From IMG/VR virus record IMGVR_UViG_2778261299_000011: a stretch of 42,122 bases of DNA; one strand, written 5' to 3'. The DNA is from a virus (lineage: Duplodnaviria; Heunggongvirae; Uroviricota; Caudoviricetes). How positions within the stretch are numbered: position 1 is the stretch's first letter; each line of letters opens with the position of its first letter. This document shows, in pieces, positions 6,468-42,122 of this stretch. The notes under the pieces are model-generated. The model had not been told where the DNA came from. It did not search any database and saw only the letters and a list, made by a program, of their open reading frames with translations. The position numbers were made by a program, and so were the translations under genes.

Positions 6468-6884
6468 TTATACCTCTGAATCAATATCAACCTGGTGGCG
6501 AGCAATAGTTTCAACCATGTACCGGATGTGTTCTGCCATGCGTTCCTGAAACTCAACATCGTCATCAAACGCACGGGTAATGGCTTTTTTGCTGGCCCCG
6601 TGGCGTTGCAAATGATCGATGCATAGCGATTCAAACAGGTGCTGGGGCAGGCCTTTTTCCATGTCGTCTGCCAGTTTTGCCTCTTTCTCTTCACGGGCGA
6701 TCTGCTGGTAGTGACGCGCCCAGCTCTGAGCCTCAAGACGATCCTGAATGTAATAAGCGTTCATGGCTGAACTCCTGAAATAGCTGTGAAAATATCGCCC
6801 GCGAAATGCCGGGCTGATTAGGAAAACAGGGAAGGGGGGTAGTGAATGCTTTTGCTTGATCTCAGTTTCAGTATTAATATCCAT
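6468..6884 (-). CDS. gam: Lambda Gam (RecBCD inhibitor), 138 aa
   Basis: [68 protein letters not shown]... matches lambda Gam. Confidence 0.95.
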
Positions 6885-34111: not shown

Positions 34112-34124
34112 AGAGGGATTGGGT

Positions 34125-34697
34125 ATGGCGATTAGCTACGCATTTGCGCTGGCAACAATTACACAACAAATGAATCAGGTTCAGGAAGCTGTTAACGGTG
34201 CTTTCAAACCCCTGATCTCTAATGCTTGTGAACTGCCACAACGATTAGATGCTGAAGAGGCATTTCGTCGTTGTACCGCGATTGCTGCACGCGCTCAAGA
34301 AATCGAAAATACCGCGAAGGAAGGCATGTCTCATCTCGAAGCTTTTCGAAATGGAAGAATCATTGTTGATGAGCTTCCGGAAGGGTTTTTATCCCATCTC
34401 GAAGGTCTTGCCAAGGCATGCCGAAATGCTAAAGGACATTTAGTGGATATGTTCTCTGAAGCGGAAAGGTCCCCTATGTGGCAAGGCCATCTGCAAATGT
34501 TGCGCCCATTAAAACGCAAATATGTTCGTGCGTTGACCGCCGTCGAGAACACTGCAACTCAGTTGGCCGCTGAAGTTAGGCAATCGCAGCCTTTCCAGGC
34601 TGAACTCTTGTCAGATAATGTTACCCGTGAAGAGGCGATTGAACTGATCTCAACATCGCATAAGATGCTGGGAGCCGACGCCCCTAAATGGATGTGA
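34125..34697 (+). CDS. Unknown 190-aa helical protein, putative partner/antitoxin of the downstream YafO-like protein
   Basis: ATG 34125 follows AGAGGGATTGGGT (the track start TTG 34119 is also possible). The stop lies 1 nt before the next ATG. No motif recognised. Confidence 0.6.
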   Translation: MAISYAFALATITQQMNQVQEAVNGAFKPLISNACELPQRLDAEEAFRRCTAIAARAQEIENTAKEGMSHLEAFRNGRIIVDELPEGFLSHLEGLAKACRNAKGHLVDMFSEAERSPMWQGHLQMLRPLKRKYVRALTAVENTATQLAAEVRQSQPFQAELLSDNVTREEAIELISTSHKMLGADAPKWM

Positions 34698-34698
34698 C

Positions 34699-35115
34699 AT
34701 GGCAAAAGTCAGTATCACGGGAGAATTGCGTCATTTAGCTGCAGCACATAAGTATGCTCAAATGCTTGCCGATTATATTTCAAAGGGTTCCCAGTTCTGG
34801 TGTTTTGGTTCGTTAGGCGGTTTTGAACGTAACTATGATGCGATGGCTGCCAACATCAGGAAAATTCACTTAAAGCTACCTGGCGATAAACCCTGGCCTC
34901 CAGAAGCATCTCTGAGTGAACGGACATGTGATAATTTTTTGGTATATGCTCAGCATCTTTATATCGATGAACACTATCAGATATTGGCAATCATCAGCCC
35001 AAACGCTCATCAGCAAGCTGATTCGATGCTTCCCCGGCTGATAAAATTAGCAGAGGAAACCTTCATAGAACTTCCTCCTGATGAACTCGAAAAATTGAAA
35101 ACCTACGATTCATAA
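34699..35115 (+). CDS. YafO-family toxin-like protein (ribosome-dependent mRNA interferase family), 138 aa
   Basis: Ordered motifs shared with E. coli YafO as I recall it: IRKIHL/VAHIHL, PWPP/PFPP, SERTCDNFLVYAQ/SRTNDEAHLVYCQ, QILAIISPNAH/WLLIAILKPEPH and LAEETF/MAEAF. Confidence 0.65.
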   Translation: MAKVSITGELRHLAAAHKYAQMLADYISKGSQFWCFGSLGGFERNYDAMAANIRKIHLKLPGDKPWPPEASLSERTCDNFLVYAQHLYIDEHYQILAIISPNAHQQADSMLPRLIKLAEETFIELPPDELEKLKTYDS

Positions 35116-35913: not shown

Positions 35914-36266
35914 TGCGATACAGACGTGAAGACGCCGTTGGCGATTACACCTTTGGCAGCGGTGATGACACCTGGCTGATTAACTCACCGGAGGCCGTGG
36001 CGCAGGCGGTAAAAACGCGATTCGAATTGTGGTATGGGCAATGGTTTCTCGACACCACTGAGGGGACTCCGTGGATCCAGTCCGTACTCGGTAAGCAGAA
36101 GCCGGAAACCTACAACCTGGCGATCCGTAAGCGCATCCTCGAAACGCGGGGCGTTAAATCAATCCTCTCTTTCAATACGACGGTGGATACCACGACCCGA
36201 CGTGTCATGTTTTCCGCTGAAATCGACACTCTTTATGGAATAACGACTGTTACATCGGAGGCGTAA
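35913..36266 (+). CDS. Baseplate wedge protein (gp25/GPW-position), 117 aa
   Basis: ATGA junctions on both sides. The call is positional. Confidence 0.5.
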   Translation: MRYRREDAVGDYTFGSGDDTWLINSPEAVAQAVKTRFELWYGQWFLDTTEGTPWIQSVLGKQKPETYNLAIRKRILETRGVKSILSFNTTVDTTTRRVMFSAEIDTLYGITTVTSEA

Positions 36267-37465
36267 TGGCTCTGAACCTTGATTCTCTTGGTTTATCTGC
36301 AAAGGTAACCGCAGAGGGGATCAGTGCGCCTGATTATCAGACGATACTCAGCACCCTGATTAGCTATTTTCAGCAGATTTATGGCAGTGATGCCTACCTC
36401 GAACCGGACAGCAAAGACGGCCAGATGGTGGCTCTGATAGCGCTGGCGATTCATGATGCCAATAATATGGCGATAACTGTCTACAACTGTTTTTCACCGG
36501 CAACCGGCTATGGGGCTGCACTGACCAGCAACGTGAAAATAAATGGTATTTCACGTAAAGGTGCGACGAACTCTACGGTTGATTTGCTTCTTACAGGAAC
36601 TGCCGGAACAACCATCATTAATGGCAGCGTGAAAGACAGTAATAATGTGATATGGCGTTTGCCTGCTTCAGTGGTGGTCGGCGTGGATGGTACAGTGATG
36701 GCGACCGCAACATGTTCTGTCAGTGGTGCAGTGGCGGCGCTGGATGGAACTATCACTGAAATTAATACGCCAACCCGTGGCTGGGTTTCGGTAACCAATC
36801 CTGCTGCGGCTACTGTGGGCACTCCGGCAGAAACTGATGCGGAGTTACGTATCCGCCAGTCGCAAAGTGTTGCATTGCCATCAATAACCCCATTTGAAGC
36901 ACTGGATGGTGCTGTTTCTAATGTTACCGGTGTAACCCGCCACAAACTCTATGAAAACGATACTGGTTCGGAGGACGGTAACGGGTTACCACCACACTCT
37001 GTTGCTGTAATTGTGGATGGCGGTGATGTGACGGATATTGCTCAGGCTATCAGAGGGAATAAAGGTCAGGGGACAGCCACTCACGGTACAACATCCGTTA
37101 CGGTTCCGGATAAATACGGCAATCCCCATGTAATCAAATTCTCGCGTTCCAGTGATGTACCTGTTTATGCCCGGATTAAATTAAAAGTTTTTACGGGTTA
37201 TACCTCACAGATAGGGCAGCAGATCCAGCAGGCTATTTCCGACTATATCAATAGTCTGACGATTGGTGATTCAGTCCTTTTAAGTCGCATTTACTCACCG
37301 GCCAATCTTGGCGTGGTGAGTGGCGGGAATGCACGCTATTACGATATTCAGGAACTGACGATTGGGAAATCCCCGGGGGCTTTGTCGTCATCAAACATTG
37401 ATATCAGATACAACGAATCTGCGTCCTGTACCCCGGAAAATATCGTTATAACGGTGGAGTCATGA
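36266..37465 (+). CDS. Baseplate J-like protein (Mu gp47/P2 gpJ family), 399 aa
   Basis: Size and position fit, and the N-terminal region is typical of the baseplate J family. Confidence 0.7.
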   Translation: MALNLDSLGLSAKVTAEGISAPDYQTILSTLISYFQQIYGSDAYLEPDSKDGQMVALIALAIHDANNMAITVYNCFSPATGYGAALTSNVKINGISRKGATNSTVDLLLTGTAGTTIINGSVKDSNNVIWRLPASVVVGVDGTVMATATCSVSGAVAALDGTITEINTPTRGWVSVTNPAAATVGTPAETDAELRIRQSQSVALPSITPFEALDGAVSNVTGVTRHKLYENDTGSEDGNGLPPHSVAVIVDGGDVTDIAQAIRGNKGQGTATHGTTSVTVPDKYGNPHVIKFSRSSDVPVYARIKLKVFTGYTSQIGQQIQQAISDYINSLTIGDSVLLSRIYSPANLGVVSGGNARYYDIQELTIGKSPGALSSSNIDIRYNESASCTPENIVITVES

Positions 37466-38142
37466 GCAAATACACCGAACTAATCACGAACTACCACGCC
37501 ACCAAACCTAAATTTCTTGCGCATGTTGATCTGATGACCCGGCCGCTTATTGATGTTGCGGCTGCCACCAGAGGGCTGATTACTGCATTTGATATTGACT
37601 CTGCGGTTGGTGTGCAACTTGACATTCTGGGATTGTGGATCGGACGTAGCCGTGTTGTCAGCCAGCCTATCTCAGGTGTCTATTTCAGCTGGGATACCGA
37701 CGGGCTTGGATATGATCAGGGGGTATGGCAGGGGCCATATGATCCTGATTCTGGATACATGTATCTCAGCGATGAAACTTATCGTGTCATTCTTAAAGCG
37801 AAGATTGCGATTAATAACTGGGACGGACGGAATGATTCGCTTCCGGCAATTCTTGACGCGGCAACAGCAGGATCCGGGCTGCGAATGCAGATTGTCGATA
37901 ACCAGGACATGACGATATCGGTCTGGGTCTTTCCTGATACTGATATTTCAGATGTATCGCGTGAGTTAATTGCTGCAATTAAACAGGGATATCTCACAGT
38001 AAAAGCCGCCGGGGTGTGGGCGGGTGGCATTGAAACACCTTCGGTGGAAACCCCATCGGAAGGTTCAAAATTTTTTGGTTTTGATATGGATAACGAATTC
38101 ATCAGTGGTTTTGATGTAGGGGCATGGGGAGTATTACTCTGA
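37462..38142 (+). CDS. Baseplate/tail-fibre adaptor protein (DUF2612-like, from memory), 226 aa
   Basis: Lies between the J-like and tail-fibre genes, with overlapping junctions. Confidence 0.55.
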
Positions 38143-38960
38143 TGGCAAAAAATGACTTTAAAGCATTCGCAACGGGTAAAAATGCCAATGTTATGTCGCA
38201 GGAGGAATGGGAAGCGTTGCCTGCGCTTTTATCCGGATTTACAGCAGGGAAAGCATCCAGTGCGCAAGTCAATAAGGTTATTCGGCAGGCCAGCTTTATT
38301 GCTGCAGCTCTGGCCCAGTTTGTAAGTGACAAAACGCAACGGGATGTGCTTGATAATGGTGATCTGCCCGGTTTTGTTGAATTGCTGGGATCGGGGTTTG
38401 CTGTTGAATACCTGAGCCGCAAGAATCCGTTTGGTGATATCAAATCGGATGGCACGGTGAAAACGGCTCTCGAAAACCTTGGTTTGGGAGAAGGCTCAGC
38501 ATTACCTGTTGGGGTGCCTGTTCCGTGGCCTTCAGCCACTCCGCCAACAGGCTGGTTGAAATGCAATGGTGCGGCTTTTTCTGCTGAAGAATATCCCAAA
38601 CTGGCAAAGGTTTATCCGACAAATAAATTGCCTGATTTACGTGGTGAGTTTATTCGTGGCTGGGATGATGGGCGTGGTATTGATGCTGGGCGTGCTTTAT
38701 TGAGCCTTCAGGCTGGAATGCTGGAAAAACACCGCCATATGGTTGTAGCCAACGATGGGTATGATTCAAAAGAGGAATGGGAACTGGCGGCAATCTTCAG
38801 AAAAGCATATACGCAAGGCCGGGGGCTTGATGCTGCCGATGCCGGAGGGACTCTGATTCCATCACCAACGCTACATACACGAGGGAGTATTGGTAACACA
38901 GGTGGGAGAGAAACCCGTCCACGAAATATTGCATTTAACTATATCGTGAGAGCTGCGTAA
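38142..38960 (+). CDS. Tail fibre protein (constant N-part + currently expressed variable C-part with phage tail-collar domain), 272 aa
   Basis: ATG 38142 (ATGA overlap) gives [33 protein letters not shown]. The collar-domain motif is [38 protein letters not shown]...[19 protein letters not shown]. The invertase crossover site lies inside the gene at 38467-38492. Confidence 0.85.
38467..38492 (+). repeat. Left 26-bp invertase crossover site (pix/gix-like)
   Basis: CTCTCGAAAACCTTGGTTTGGGAGAA. Its reverse complement TTCTCCCAAACCAAGGTTTTCGAGAG shares its first 14 nt with the right site. Confidence 0.75.
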
Positions 38961-39562
38961 TGGATAAAGCCGTATTAAATAGCGAACTTATTGCCACGAA
39001 GGCGGGGAATATTACCGTCTATAACTATGATGGTGAAACACGGGAATATATTTCTGAATCAACTGAATATCTTGCTGTTGGCGTCGGTATTCCCGCACAT
39101 TCGTGTTTAGATGCTCCTGGTTCATATAAGTCAGGTTATGTGTCCTGTCGAACTCTGGATTTGAGATCATGGGAATATGTGCCAGACCATCGCGGTGAAA
39201 TCGTCTATAACACCGAAACGGGGGACTCAAAAGAAATCACAGTGCCGGGAGATTACCCTGAAAAGACAACCACTATTGCTCCGTTAACACCATACGATAA
39301 GTGGGATGGTGAGAAATGGGTGACGGATACCAAAGCGCAACATAACGCAGCAGTGGAAGGGGCTGAACTGCAACGCCAGTCACTGATTGATGATGCCATG
39401 TCTTCCATTGTTCTGATTCAACTAAAATTGCAGGCCGGGCGGAAGCTGACGCAGGCAGAAACCACCCGACTTAACGCTGTGCTGGATTACATTGACGCGG
39501 TGACGGCAACAGATTCCAGCACCGCGCCGGATGTCATCTGGCCTGAACTGCCGGAGGCGTAG
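38960..39562 (+). CDS. Tail fibre assembly protein (Tfa/U), 200 aa
   Basis: ATGA-type overlap with the fibre gene. The C-terminal ...LNAVLDYIDAVTATDSSTAPDVIWPELPEA is the Tfa hallmark. Confidence 0.85.
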   Translation: MDKAVLNSELIATKAGNITVYNYDGETREYISESTEYLAVGVGIPAHSCLDAPGSYKSGYVSCRTLDLRSWEYVPDHRGEIVYNTETGDSKEITVPGDYPEKTTTIAPLTPYDKWDGEKWVTDTKAQHNAAVEGAELQRQSLIDDAMSSIVLIQLKLQAGRKLTQAETTRLNAVLDYIDAVTATDSSTAPDVIWPELPEA

Positions 39563-39977
39563 GCCATTCAATATCTGGCGCACTGGAGGTATCAACCAGT
39601 TCCAGTGCGTCCAGATAATCCAGCCACAAATTATATTGCGCCAGTTCGTCACCTTTCAGACGACCAATAGCGGCTTTACCGGGCCATTGCTTACTGTTCA
39701 TGTATTCGTTGGCCTGGTTAATTAGTAGCTGTCTTTCTGATTCAGTAATTTCAATAAGCTCTTCATGAGTAGGTGGAGGAATATCTGCCCACGCAGGCAG
39801 CCCATCATCTCCGGCAATACGGATTTTTCCTTGTGGCGGTTCAGCCATAAACTCACTGATAATATTTTGATTTACTTCCTTAGCGTCTGATAAATCCCAT
39901 CCCTCTGATTTATATTTATCAATCATATCCACAGGAAAAAAAGCATTATGCCTTGCGCTATAAACATATTCGTTCAT
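39534..39977 (-). CDS. Alternative tail fibre assembly protein (U'), 147 aa
   Basis: ATG 39977 follows AGGGTG. The C-terminal ...YNLWLDYLDALELVDTSSAPDIEWPTPP is the Tfa hallmark. Convergent with U. Confidence 0.8.
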   Translation of the reverse strand: MNEYVYSARHNAFFPVDMIDKYKSEGWDLSDAKEVNQNIISEFMAEPPQGKIRIAGDDGLPAWADIPPPTHEELIEITESERQLLINQANEYMNSKQWPGKAAIGRLKGDELAQYNLWLDYLDALELVDTSSAPDIEWPTPPAVQAR

Positions 39978-39997
39978 ATAAATCACCCTGAATAAAA

Positions 39998-40369
39998 TTA
40001 CTCACCAACAGCCCACCAACTGTAATTCATCGATACCGTGTCGCTGGTTGATGACGTTCTGTAAGCAGAATTAAAGCCGGTTAACGTTGGGCCTTCTGCA
40101 GTCATCACGAACCCTCGCCCAGCGCCTAAAGGCGCACCGCCATCACCAGAATGAGTAAGCATGGCGCAGTCCGCTTTTTTGGGGAAAGGGATGCTGAATG
40201 TAATTCTCATTGTTTGCGTCGATAATGTCGGCGTAACCGCACCACGACCATATTGCAGGATTTTCCCGTTGGGTAATTTCATCCATCCATCACCACTGGC
40301 AAAAGAGGCCATGTCCGGTATCTGATTTCCCCCTGTCCCCACATCCCGTTTTGCCGCTTCTCCCAAACC
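39998..40369 (-). CDS. Alternative tail-fibre C-terminal segment (Sv'), silent in this orientation
   Basis: An open frame with no start of its own begins within the right crossover site (…NVGLGEAAKRDVGTGGNQIPDMASF…WWAVGE). Inversion would fuse it to fibre codons 1-~115. Confidence 0.75.
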   Translation of the reverse strand, partial: GLGEAAKRDVGTGGNQIPDMASFASGDGWMKLPNGKILQYGRGAVTPTLSTQTMRITFSIPFPKKADCAMLTHSGDGGAPLGAGRGFVMTAEGPTLTGFNSAYRTSSTSDTVSMNYSWWAVGE

Positions 40370-40383
40370 AACGTTTATGAAAA
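40358..40383 (+). repeat. Right 26-bp invertase crossover site
   Basis: TTCTCCCAAACCAACGTTTATGAAAA, in inverted orientation relative to 38467-38492, with a 12-bp identical core GGTTTGGGAGAA. Confidence 0.75.
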
Positions 40384-40437
40384 TGCAGAAATAATGAGCA
40401 AATGGCATCATTCCTGCTTTTGTCAGGGGGATCTACC

Positions 40438-40546
40438 ATGCTTATTGGCTATGTACGCGTGTCAACAAATGACCAGAACACAGATCTACAACGTAATGCA
40501 CTGAACTGTGCAGGATGCGAGCTGATTTTTGAAGACAAGATAAGTA
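40438..40546 (+). pseudogene. pin: Truncated Din-family serine invertase (pin), first 36 codons only
   Basis: MLIGYVRVSTNDQNTDLQRNALNCAGCELIFEDKIS is identical, as I recall, to the e14 Pin N-terminus. Homology and GC content then break. The catalytic Ser is present, but about 150 residues, including the HTH, are missing. Confidence 0.85.
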
Positions 40547-40608
40547 GTGCTATGGGGGTTAGGCATTATAATTGGTTGTTAAAAATCAATAAGTTTTGTA
40601 TTGTTGTG

Positions 40609-41142
40609 ATGATATTACCATCATGTTACAAGGTGTGGATTTTGGCGAAGTTACTATATGTAAAACCTATAACGATAAAAAAAGCAAATGAATTTGTTTC
40701 TATTTATCATCGACACCATCGACCAACGTCAAGGAATTCGGGCAGATGGGCTATAGCTGCCTACCACATAGATTCTGATGAATTGGTTGGTGTAGCGATA
40801 GTTGGAAATCCCGTATCTGCAACGTACATGGATGGTGTGACGGCAGAGATTACACGATTATGTGTCAGTGACAAATCTCCAAAAGGAACTTGCTCCTTTC
40901 TGATTAGTCGATGTAGCACAATCTGGAAAATGATGGGAGGAGAAAAAATTATTACCTATACTCTAAGCAGTGAAACAGGCGCATCTTTAAAAGGTGCTGG
41001 GTGGCAGTTAGTTGGGACTGTACATCCTCATAATCGTTGGGCCGATAAAGCAAAGCAGGATGGAATAATTAGGGATAATTTAGAAATATATAAACTGAAG
41101 AAATTTCGTTGGGAATGTTTACTCGGGGAGGTTCTAATATGA
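40609..41142 (+). CDS. GNAT-fold-like small protein (XF1762/Mom-type pattern), about 166-177 aa; start uncertain (ATG 40609, or TTG 40642 with AAGGTG SD)
   Basis: KPITIKKANEFVSIYHRHHRP, VGVAIVGNPVS, EITRLCVSD, CSFLISRC and IITYTLSSETGASLKGAGWQ match the pattern of a small phage/prophage acyltransferase-fold family from memory. The gene is AT-rich. Confidence 0.6.
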   Translation: MILPSCYKVWILAKLLYVKPITIKKANEFVSIYHRHHRPTSRNSGRWAIAAYHIDSDELVGVAIVGNPVSATYMDGVTAEITRLCVSDKSPKGTCSFLISRCSTIWKMMGGEKIITYTLSSETGASLKGAGWQLVGTVHPHNRWADKAKQDGIIRDNLEIYKLKKFRWECLLGEVLI

Positions 41143-42122
41143 GAGTTATGGCAGCGTTTAGCTCTGATTCCAGAGAACAATATAAAGCTGATATATTCAA
41201 GGTGTTAAGTTTGCCAAAAGGTGATGTCATTCATTTTAGATACAAAAAGAAATATGTTGAGGCTTGCATTTATCAACAACGGCAAGCGATAGTTGGTAGT
41301 GATGTATTCATTTATTTTTCGCAAGGAAATACAATGAATGAAAATAAAAAATTGATCCATAAATCAATTAGGAAGGCGAAAATAATTTCGTTTGACTGGA
41401 GTGATATGACCGAACTTTATCATGTTCGGATGATTCTTGGGGATTTTATTAATGCTGAAATTTGTAATCAGGGAGATGATGGGCTTTTCTTAAAATATAT
41501 AGAATGTAACGATTCTGATTATTATAGCAACTGGAAAAGTAGGGTGGAAGAAGTTAGGTGCGCATTTCCTGATATGATGTTTTTTTCTATTGATGGTATC
41601 CTTGACTCTCTAGGAAGAAGAGTTATTCCGAAATACAACCCTCAAAGTAAAGGGTGTTTCTATGAAGTATATCATGGTGATAGGTACACTATAAATATAA
41701 AAGTAGCGAATCTTGATGGAGCTTCTAAAAAATTACTTATAAATTGTAGTCCTGATGATGTTGTGATTGCACATTGTAATCCTATAGAATCATCTGTTGA
41801 TTATGATGATATTTATATTCCACTTAATATCAAAACGTTGCCTTTTTTTAAACACTCAAACTTTTTATCATATAAAGTAATTAATGTAGAAAGTGACGGC
41901 ACTAGTGGGAATTCTAATGGTGAAATTAAAGGGGGTGGGGTGGGTAAAAATGTTGACTTTGATATGTATACAGTGGCACAAGAACTATGTCTGAGACTTA
42001 ATTTAAAAAGTGCTATTATGTTTGGATTGTTATGTTTGATGGCTTTTTTGGCAATGGTATTCGTTAGTGATAAAAATACAATGATTGTTTGGCCCTATAT
42101 TAAAATAGGTATGTCGGCTATT
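41139..42122 (+). CDS. Unknown large protein, at least 328 aa, 3'-truncated by the window end; hydrophobic helix near residue 300
   Basis: Hand translation from ATG 41139 (ATGA overlap with the previous stop) is open to the last base. Product starts MRVMAAFSSDSREQYKADIFKVLSLPKGDVIHFRYKKKYVE and includes ...AIMFGLLCLMAFLAMVFVSDKN... It is absent from the supplied ORF track. Confidence 0.65.
   Translation, partial: MRVMAAFSSDSREQYKADIFKVLSLPKGDVIHFRYKKKYVEACIYQQRQAIVGSDVFIYFSQGNTMNENKKLIHKSIRKAKIISFDWSDMTELYHVRMILGDFINAEICNQGDDGLFLKYIECNDSDYYSNWKSRVEEVRCAFPDMMFFSIDGILDSLGRRVIPKYNPQSKGCFYEVYHGDRYTINIKVANLDGASKKLLINCSPDDVVIAHCNPIESSVDYDDIYIPLNIKTLPFFKHSNFLSYKVINVESDGTSGNSNGEIKGGGVGKNVDFDMYTVAQELCLRLNLKSAIMFGLLCLMAFLAMVFVSDKNTMIVWPYIKIGMSAI

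Follow-up and report, generated by a model that had tools for sequence, protein, structure and literature searches.

A tail-fibre switch without an invertase of its own in an Escherichia coli prophage lineage, found in both orientations and probably flipped in trans

Invertible tail-fibre segments are textbook knowledge, and cross-complementation among the invertases Gin, Cin, Pin and Hin has been classical since the 1980s; the mechanism considered here, inversion in trans, is therefore not a new one. The closest described systems are the P segment of the e14 prophage of Escherichia coli K-12 (gene order stfP-tfaP-tfaE-stfE-pinE-mcrA), the G segment of phage Mu and the Hin/hix/Fis system of Salmonella, together with a case of inversion in trans, in which PinQ, encoded by the Qin prophage, flips the P segment of e14 (Kirigo et al., NAR 2025, PMC12529663). 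Flipping of the P segment has been linked to defence against phage T2 via the chimeric fibre protein StfE2 (PMC12529663). Here we describe a related switch in a 42,122-nt stretch of DNA (the window; IMG/VR virus record IMGVR_UViG_2778261299_000011), a Caudoviricetes prophage of E. coli that spans from an integrase gene (1-1074) to a two-gene cargo module. By its layout and its crossover sites, the fibre switch of this prophage is a member of the Din-family class formed by the e14 P, Mu G and P1 C segments, and, as its own invertase is missing, we file it as a non-autonomous variant of that class. Its segment is still found in both orientations among E. coli strains, and we estimate at roughly 80% the probability that this e14/Mu-type switch has kept its cis elements and is flipped in trans by the invertases of co-resident prophages.

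The likeness to e14 is close. Both 26-bp crossover sites of the e14 P segment are identical to those of the window, the order of a baseplate J-type gene, a wedge gene, a constant fibre part and a segment with two convergent gene sets is the same, and the region from the right-hand site (pixR) to the 5′ part of pin is 95% identical over 188 nt. In both loci a non-phage gene follows pin, which in e14 is mcrA. In contrast to e14, however, pin in the window breaks off after codon 36 and runs into a Mom-like module, the prophage looks complete and lies between torS and torT rather than at icd, and the fibre tips are 85-90% identical or different. The Mu G segment likewise has the order gp47-gp48-S-U-U′-S′-invertase, and a DNA-modification gene of the Mom type comes next; over its first 108 nt, Mu gin is strongly conserved with the pin stub of the window, including both predicted Fis cores, and the cargo of the window (40642-42122) occupies the slot that com-mom fills after gin in Mu (L027, 4593-6103). 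Mu nevertheless differs in making its own Gin and in having a larger fibre and a larger G segment (3 kb), whereas the Mom-like gene of the window abuts the invertase stub, lacks an accompanying com, and scores below the Pfam Mom cut-off and above the XF1762 cut-off. Cross-prophage flipping at the same repeats (TTGGTTTGGGAGAAGG) is the point of resemblance to PinQ acting on the e14 P segment, but that K-12 target retains its own pinE, whereas in the window action in trans would be obligatory. PinQ and PinR, orphan invertases that lack a segment of their own, present the reverse situation.

A preliminary description of this DNA, made from its letters, had reported 26-bp inverted crossover sites around two convergent sets of fibre C-terminus and chaperone, with in-frame fusions in either orientation, and our analysis bears out each of these statements (Table 1). 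The two inverted sites consist of 12-bp, imperfectly symmetric half-sites around a 2-bp core; TT in the left-hand site (pixL) and AA in pixR are one core read on opposite strands, which is the match that inversion requires, and no other such site occurs in the window at up to seven mismatches. The two 26-mers are, base for base, the experimentally defined crossover sites of the K-12 e14 P segment (L034, 4779-4804 for pixL and 6606-6631 for pixR) and are thus bona fide PinE sites; the repeats flanking the e14 segment have been given as TTGGTTTGGGAGAAGG and CCTTCTCCCAAACCAA (PMC12529663). Together, the inner half-sites and the core give an inverted repeat of 15 nt without mismatch, TTGGTTTGGGAGAAG, located at 38479-38493 on the plus strand and 40357-40371 on the minus strand; this 15-mer has just these two matches in the 42-kb window at no more than two mismatches, against a chance expectation of 0.12, and a repeat finder returned the same pair with 20-nt arms that are 95% complementary.

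The segment between the cores holds two convergent sets, Sv with tfa on the plus strand and tfa′ with Sv′ on the minus strand, whose identities are confirmed by domain matches; Sv also belongs to the PHROG tail fibre and tail collar fibre families. The constant part of the fibre (Sc) lies outside the segment, and its N-terminal 120 residues match the tail-fibre PHROGs 11303 and 1396. Inversion of 38481-40369 in silico replaces the present fibre of 272 amino acids (aa) with an in-frame fibre of 236 aa, and the locus thus has the layout of a host-range switch, with a constant N-terminus outside and two in-frame C-termini each with its own chaperone. The two tips come from unrelated families (Collar versus Gp53-like_C), which is consistent with different receptors for the two fibres, and the two forms would presumably confer different host ranges. 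In addition, the open reading frame (ORF) of Sv′ extends on the minus strand to 40411 through a short StfE-type head, MMPFAHYFCIFINV, which lies outside the segment, between pixR and pin. This is the position of the head in K-12 stfE, so that each orientation also yields a second, headless fibre-tip ORF; the e14 counterpart, the chimera StfE2, has been reported to block adsorption of phage T2 (PMC12529663).

The pin gene next to pixR is indeed reduced to 36 codons, as first described, with homology to pinE stopping at 40544/40545. The endpoint is the same against prophage Sp1 of O157 Sakai, strain STEFF_1, K-12 e14 and many sequenced phages. In tblastn searches, the stub aligned over 36 residues with Gin and over 42 with PinE and with a 190-aa recombinase, the last six residues lying beyond the DNA breakpoint, and the Pfam Resolvase domain covers stub residues 3-38 only. 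The stub keeps the conserved serine-10 and no other part of the enzyme, and is incapable of encoding a recombinase; its frame stays open into the cargo as far as 41142 (234 aa in total). The adjacent full-length invertase of Din-family systems (~184-193 aa, with a catalytic domain and a helix-turn-helix) is absent here: tblastn with PinE, Gin, PinQ and the 190-aa relative found no serine recombinase other than the stub in the whole window. An intact invertase beyond the cargo was also considered and rejected, as PinE found the stub alone in the source contig (L015, of assembly GCA_033870055.1, identical to the window), L006 and L002, with neither a 3′ remnant of pin nor another invertase past the cargo. 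The cargo is followed directly by torT in the source contig, and by intS and tRNA-Arg in another sublineage. With its pin gene truncated and no invertase elsewhere in the window or past the cassette, the prophage is unable to switch by itself, a conclusion that the preliminary description had already reached. What it had called a cargo insertion is better described as the replacement of the 3′ end of pin, and of whatever lay downstream, by a two-gene module with ~70-95 bp of its own leader.

The segment is present in both orientations between strains. When the segment is flipped in silico, 9,981 nt of the window align to contig L019 (E. coli GCA_012370755.1) without a mismatch or a gap, and L019 has the same 234-aa pin′-XF1762 reading frame. 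In a sublineage with another integration site, adjoining intS and tRNA-Arg, the flipped version of L002 (strain MEI1A-0323) equals L006 over 19,685 nt without a single difference, including ~8 kb of chromosome. In a further pair, L012 and L009, the flanks have 0-1 differences and the segment is inverted and partly exchanged. The exact present and the exact predicted flipped fibre proteins occur in public data for all five truncated sublineages tested, on 32/37, 17/22, 6/2, 10/2 and 33/115 contigs (present/flipped; counts affected by clonal sampling), the 236-aa flipped fibre of the window itself being found as an exact protein on 37 public contigs. All eight of the flipped loci displayed for the window's lineage carry the 234-aa pin′-XF1762 frame at the torS/torT site. 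Since the pin′/cargo junction is common to all truncated loci, with at most one mismatch in 101 nt, a single ancestral truncation older than the flips is indicated. The segment has therefore inverted since the invertase was lost, in no fewer than two independent events, with breakpoints exactly in the cores of the crossover sites.

Two further observations concern these pairs. Within the segment, L009 and L012 match at 1,406 of ~1,820 nt and the fibre tip has been replaced; comparison of L009 8090-8115 with L012 8099-8124 gives one inner half-site variant, GGTTTAGGAGAA, as if whole cassettes had been swapped at the crossover sites. The prophage of the window is identical over ~10 kb in L015 and L019, whereas the chromosomal genes next to it, torT, torR and torC, show 26 differences in ~2.3 kb (flank compared at L019 10408-12268), which suggests recent movement of the phage or of the chromosomal region between E. 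coli backgrounds.

The preliminary description had made an exception for a Pin-like enzyme acting in trans. This is the reading that the evidence favours, although we infer the agent, a trans-acting invertase. In such a mechanism, an illegitimate join would have put the two-gene module in place of pin from codon 37 on, and the element can no longer make an invertase. Its cis parts have been kept, namely the two e14-identical 26-bp sites, the matching core dinucleotides and the enhancer-homologous region in the first 108 bp of pin. A Din-family invertase from another prophage in the cell would then bind both sites, assemble with Fis at the enhancer in the stub and invert the 1,889-bp segment, so that the expressed tip and chaperone would be swapped between the Collar-type set (Sv + tfa) and the gp53-like set (Sv′ + tfa′). 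Possible sources of such an enzyme are common. A composite blastn query joining the cargo, which ranks the carriers first, to the 3′ parts of invertases that the stub lacks recovered six complete E. coli genomes with the cargo, each with at least one further serine-recombinase-like locus, and a PinE-type 3′ match was present in 4,693 of the 5,426 complete E. coli genomes. Moreover, inversion of the e14 P segment in trans is on record for PinQ, the invertase of Qin (PMC12529663).

The part of pin that remains may itself be of use to such an enzyme. The Hin system has 26-bp sites with 12-bp half-sites and a 2-bp core, as does the window, and the 5′ part of its invertase gene contains an enhancer to which Fis binds at two places, ~100 bp away from the closer recombination site (PMC3798978). 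That enhancer measures 65 bp with a Fis site at each end, lies ~99-100 bp from hixL and has TAATG among the A/T-rich stretches between its Fis sites (PMC3798978). The geometry is the same in the window, in which two G-N13-C cores lie 49 bp apart, centre to centre, with CGTAATGC between them. Both cores are conserved in Mu gin and in the full-length relative, the stub contains no further G-N13-C 15-mer, and it ends, at 40545, ~20 bp past the second core; the 67 bp from pixR to the pin ATG equal the gixR-gin spacing in Mu. Unlike the window, Hin governs a flagellin promoter, and the enhancer of the window is predicted by homology while its cognate enzyme is missing; a literature search found no mapped enhancer for pin. 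The truncation thus appears to have taken away the enzyme while leaving all of the enhancer-homologous stretch in place. A bolder proposal, which we put forward only tentatively, is that the pin stub survives because it is the enhancer, the locus being an orphan host-range switch that free-rides on the invertases of co-resident prophages.

Several points weigh against inversion in trans. The extra PinE-type loci of the six carrier genomes number 3, 3, 3, 2, 2 and 0 by blastn count, and some of them could be resolvases (cf. hit H109); the genome without any, 09A19CPO009, has one PinQ-type locus. The host of the window itself is a draft assembly, and the carrier counts concern six other, complete genomes. 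The role of the stub region as a Fis enhancer is predicted from homology, and the spacing of the Fis sites in hin is 48 bp, compared with 49 bp for the cores here. The orientation evidence consists of assemblies and exact-sequence look-ups between strains, as distinct from reads of one culture, and confirmation of the truncated pin on flipped contigs covers the window's lineage (the eight loci shown) and L002. Finally, deletion of pinE locked the P segment of K-12 despite the presence of pinQ (PMC12529663), and action in trans may accordingly be weak at native expression; alternatively, that deletion may also have removed the enhancer.

Among the other explanations, we consider it improbable that the flips are real but were made by RecA-dependent homologous recombination between the short inverted repeats. 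Its product would be indistinguishable by sequence, and a repeat of 15 nt that is perfect, or of 20 nt at 95%, is available to it. Efficient RecA-mediated exchange in E. coli, however, usually needs ~23-27 bp, and 15-20 bp is below that. Moreover, these repeats are true invertase sites, the same as in e14, the flips recur in at least two to three sublineages with both states common, and the carrier genomes contain compatible recombinase-like loci.

The preliminary description had favoured a different view, in which the switch is frozen on the collar fibre and the cargo was fixed at the cost of host-range variation; the orientation seen would then be a fossil of the loss of pin. The truncation of pin and the lack of an invertase in or beside the prophage are in keeping with a frozen switch, as is the locking of the K-12 P segment by pinE deletion (PMC12529663). 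It is contradicted at the population level, however, by exact inversions with zero other differences in two sublineages, by the presence of both fusion proteins in five and by the shared junction, which makes the truncation older than the flips. We therefore regard it as very unlikely for the lineage, and the claimed cost in host-range variation is likewise unsupported; a frozen state could still hold for one particular host without any compatible invertase. Import of the opposite orientation by homologous recombination from a relative with intact pin is likewise highly unlikely. These prophages are mosaic, their segments are 6-12% different between sublineages, and L009 and L012 differ by a partial replacement of the segment; but the donor would have to be free of differences across the whole 1.9-kb segment and 8-18 kb of flanking DNA, and only the 188 bp that separate pixR from the junction would be available for the right-hand crossover. 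Such an import would be needed at least twice and is far less parsimonious than a site-specific flip. That the orientations are assembly artefacts is scarcely credible, for although many carriers are short-read drafts, a repeat of 15-26 bp is shorter than assembly k-mers and is read through by the contigs, and the flipped state occurs in the chromosome-level assembly of MEI1A-0323 and in dozens of independent contigs.

Table 1. Features of the fibre switch and its surroundings (positions are those of the window).
Feature	Position	Strand	Remarks
Baseplate J/gp47 gene	36266-37465		
Wedge gene	37462-38142		DUF2612
Short tail-fibre gene	38142-38960	+	ORF of the current fusion, 272 aa
Sc, constant N-terminal part of the fibre	38142-38480	+	~113 codons; outside the invertible segment; common to both switch states
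pixL, left 26-bp crossover site	38467-38492		CTCTCGAAAACC TT GGTTTGGGAGAA; core dinucleotide 38479-38480
Invertible segment	38481-40369		1,889 bp; inverted in L019, exactly from core to core, without any other difference
Sv, fibre C-terminus	38481-38960	+	now expressed, in the 272-aa fusion; Pfam Collar, E-value 9.6e-15
Chaperone for Sv (U / TfaE-like)	38960-39562	+	200 aa; Pfam Caudo_TAP, E-value 1.6e-29
Chaperone for Sv′ (U′ / TfaP-like)	39534-39977	-	147 aa; Pfam Caudo_TAP, E-value 3.4e-31
Sv′, alternative gp53-like fibre C-terminus	39998-40369	-	now silent; Pfam Gp53-like_C, E-value 7.6e-13
pixR, right 26-bp crossover site	40358-40383		TTCTCCCAAACC AA CGTTTATGAAAA; core 40370-40371
pin stub	40438-40545	+	108 bp, first 36 codons of a PinE-type invertase, MLIGYVRVSTNDQNTDLQRNALNCAGCELIFEDKIS; DNA homology to intact pinE ends at 40544/40545
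Predicted Fis-dependent recombinational enhancer	40459-40522		by homology
G-N13-C core 1 (predicted)	40459-40473		GTGTCAACAAATGAC, 15 bp; centre ~96 bp from pixR centre
G-N13-C core 2 (predicted)	40508-40522		GTGCAGGATGCGAGC, 15 bp; centre ~145 bp from pixR centre
Junction and upstream leader of the cargo	40546-40641	+	in frame with the stub by chance; conserved part from ~40572
XF1762-family / Mom-like protein	40642-41142	+	166 aa, native TTG start; NCBIfam XF1762_fam, 168.9 bits
Second cargo gene	41139-42122	+	344 aa, runs 51 nt past the window end; phrog_30351, 652.6 bits, function unknown

The prophage appears complete (42 kb, from integrase to cargo), and its 35-42 kb region forms the distal part of a contractile-tail module of the Mu/e14 type, comprising a spike gene, a sheath-initiator gene, the baseplate J/gp47 gene, the wedge gene and the short tail-fibre gene. 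A separate spot between baseplate genes (34119-35115) holds a gene for a 138-aa YafO-toxin-like protein (PF13957) and a 192-aa ORF. As DUF2335 or other small genes take this place in other sublineages, it constitutes a second variable cargo slot of the tail module.

The first protein of the cargo beside pin scores 168.9 bits against the NCBIfam XF1762 model (cut-off 50) and matches PHROG 1384, 'Mom-like DNA modification protein' (E-value 3.4e-37), whereas its 23.5 bits against Pfam Mom, the family of adenine methylcarbamoylation, are below the cut-off of 27.1; on these scores it is best classed as a member of the XF1762 family that is only Mom-like. The second protein has no match in Pfam, NCBIfam or PADLOC, a PADLOC hit of the cargo to SduA being disregarded as sub-threshold (E-value 0.0046). 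Relatives of the module turned up in one complete genome each of Klebsiella oxytoca and Serratia marcescens and in a number of short contigs from read archives, and contig L031, from an uncultured sample, encodes a partner protein that NCBI records from Hafnia alvei. In each relative locus checked in which the first gene is called, the second gene follows it, and none of the loci examined has a pin fragment. In the K. oxytoca and S. marcescens genomes the module lies between icd, the attachment gene of e14, and a prophage integrase gene. An intact-pin ancestor followed by the cargo was not found, the six copies of the cargo in complete E. coli genomes being always accompanied by the stub, and a search of a phage collection for the cargo gave a weak Vibrio phage match only.

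The leader of the module aligns with the upstream regions of the K. oxytoca locus (L028) and of L031, with a conserved CACAAGGTGT before the start codon, and a scan of 40300-40720 for promoters and terminators found nothing. The NCBI automatic annotation gives the name 'XF1762 family protein' (WP_000905006.1) to the whole 234-aa run-on (40438-41142), a sequence indexed in exact form in 612 blocks of a public assembly collection, and the name thereby covers a fusion to the pin stub. Orthologues are 164-166 aa long where called, the three that we translated (K. oxytoca, L031 and the Serratia-type L033) all start with GTG, and the two whose starts were aligned coincide with the TTG at 40642. Therefore, the fusion is most likely an accident of frame, with a native protein of 166 aa.

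Rearranged relatives of the prophage were also observed. In E. coli LH10-b-1 (L010 7165-9974, equal to L005 3056-5865), the torS/torT prophage lacks the sheath-to-fibre genes and a foreign cassette abuts the pin stub. This cassette has three Collar-type tips with one chaperone, extra pix-like sites (for example, TTCCCCCAAACCAACGTTTTTATGCG) and, in the opposite orientation, a full-length 190-aa invertase that is 75% identical to PinE. Homology to the window resumes exactly at pixR, and the arrangement looks as though two different prophages had undergone site-specific exchange at their crossover sites. Other loci (L018, L020, L022-L025 and L003/L011) are heavily deleted remnants in which only the integrase gene (in some with an excisionase gene), part of the baseplate J or wedge gene, the switch and the cargo are left; in L003/L011 (PK8568) the left crossover site is gone as well. 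K-12 e14 is a similar remnant. That the end with the switch and the cargo has survived repeatedly may be a sign of selection, acting either on the cargo or on a function derived from the fibre, for example the block of adsorption by StfE2 (PMC12529663).

In summary, what is modestly new here is a natural and widespread prophage lineage that still switches without an invertase of its own, and a truncation that leaves in place precisely the stretch of the gene which is also the predicted cis enhancer. A truncated invertase gene beside an invertible segment is therefore no ground for annotating a dead switch, and which hosts such phages can infect may depend on the other prophages of the lysogen. 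If the stub is indeed kept as an enhancer, the locus would be the counterpart, on the side of the substrate, to PinQ and PinR as orphan invertases, and a natural 'invertase-null, enhancer-intact' allele, whereas engineered deletions of the whole pinE gene presumably lack the enhancer. Cargo genes could in that case displace an invertase gene without loss of phase variation, provided that its first ~100 bp were spared, and the fibre of the released phage would depend on the prophages with which it had shared its host.

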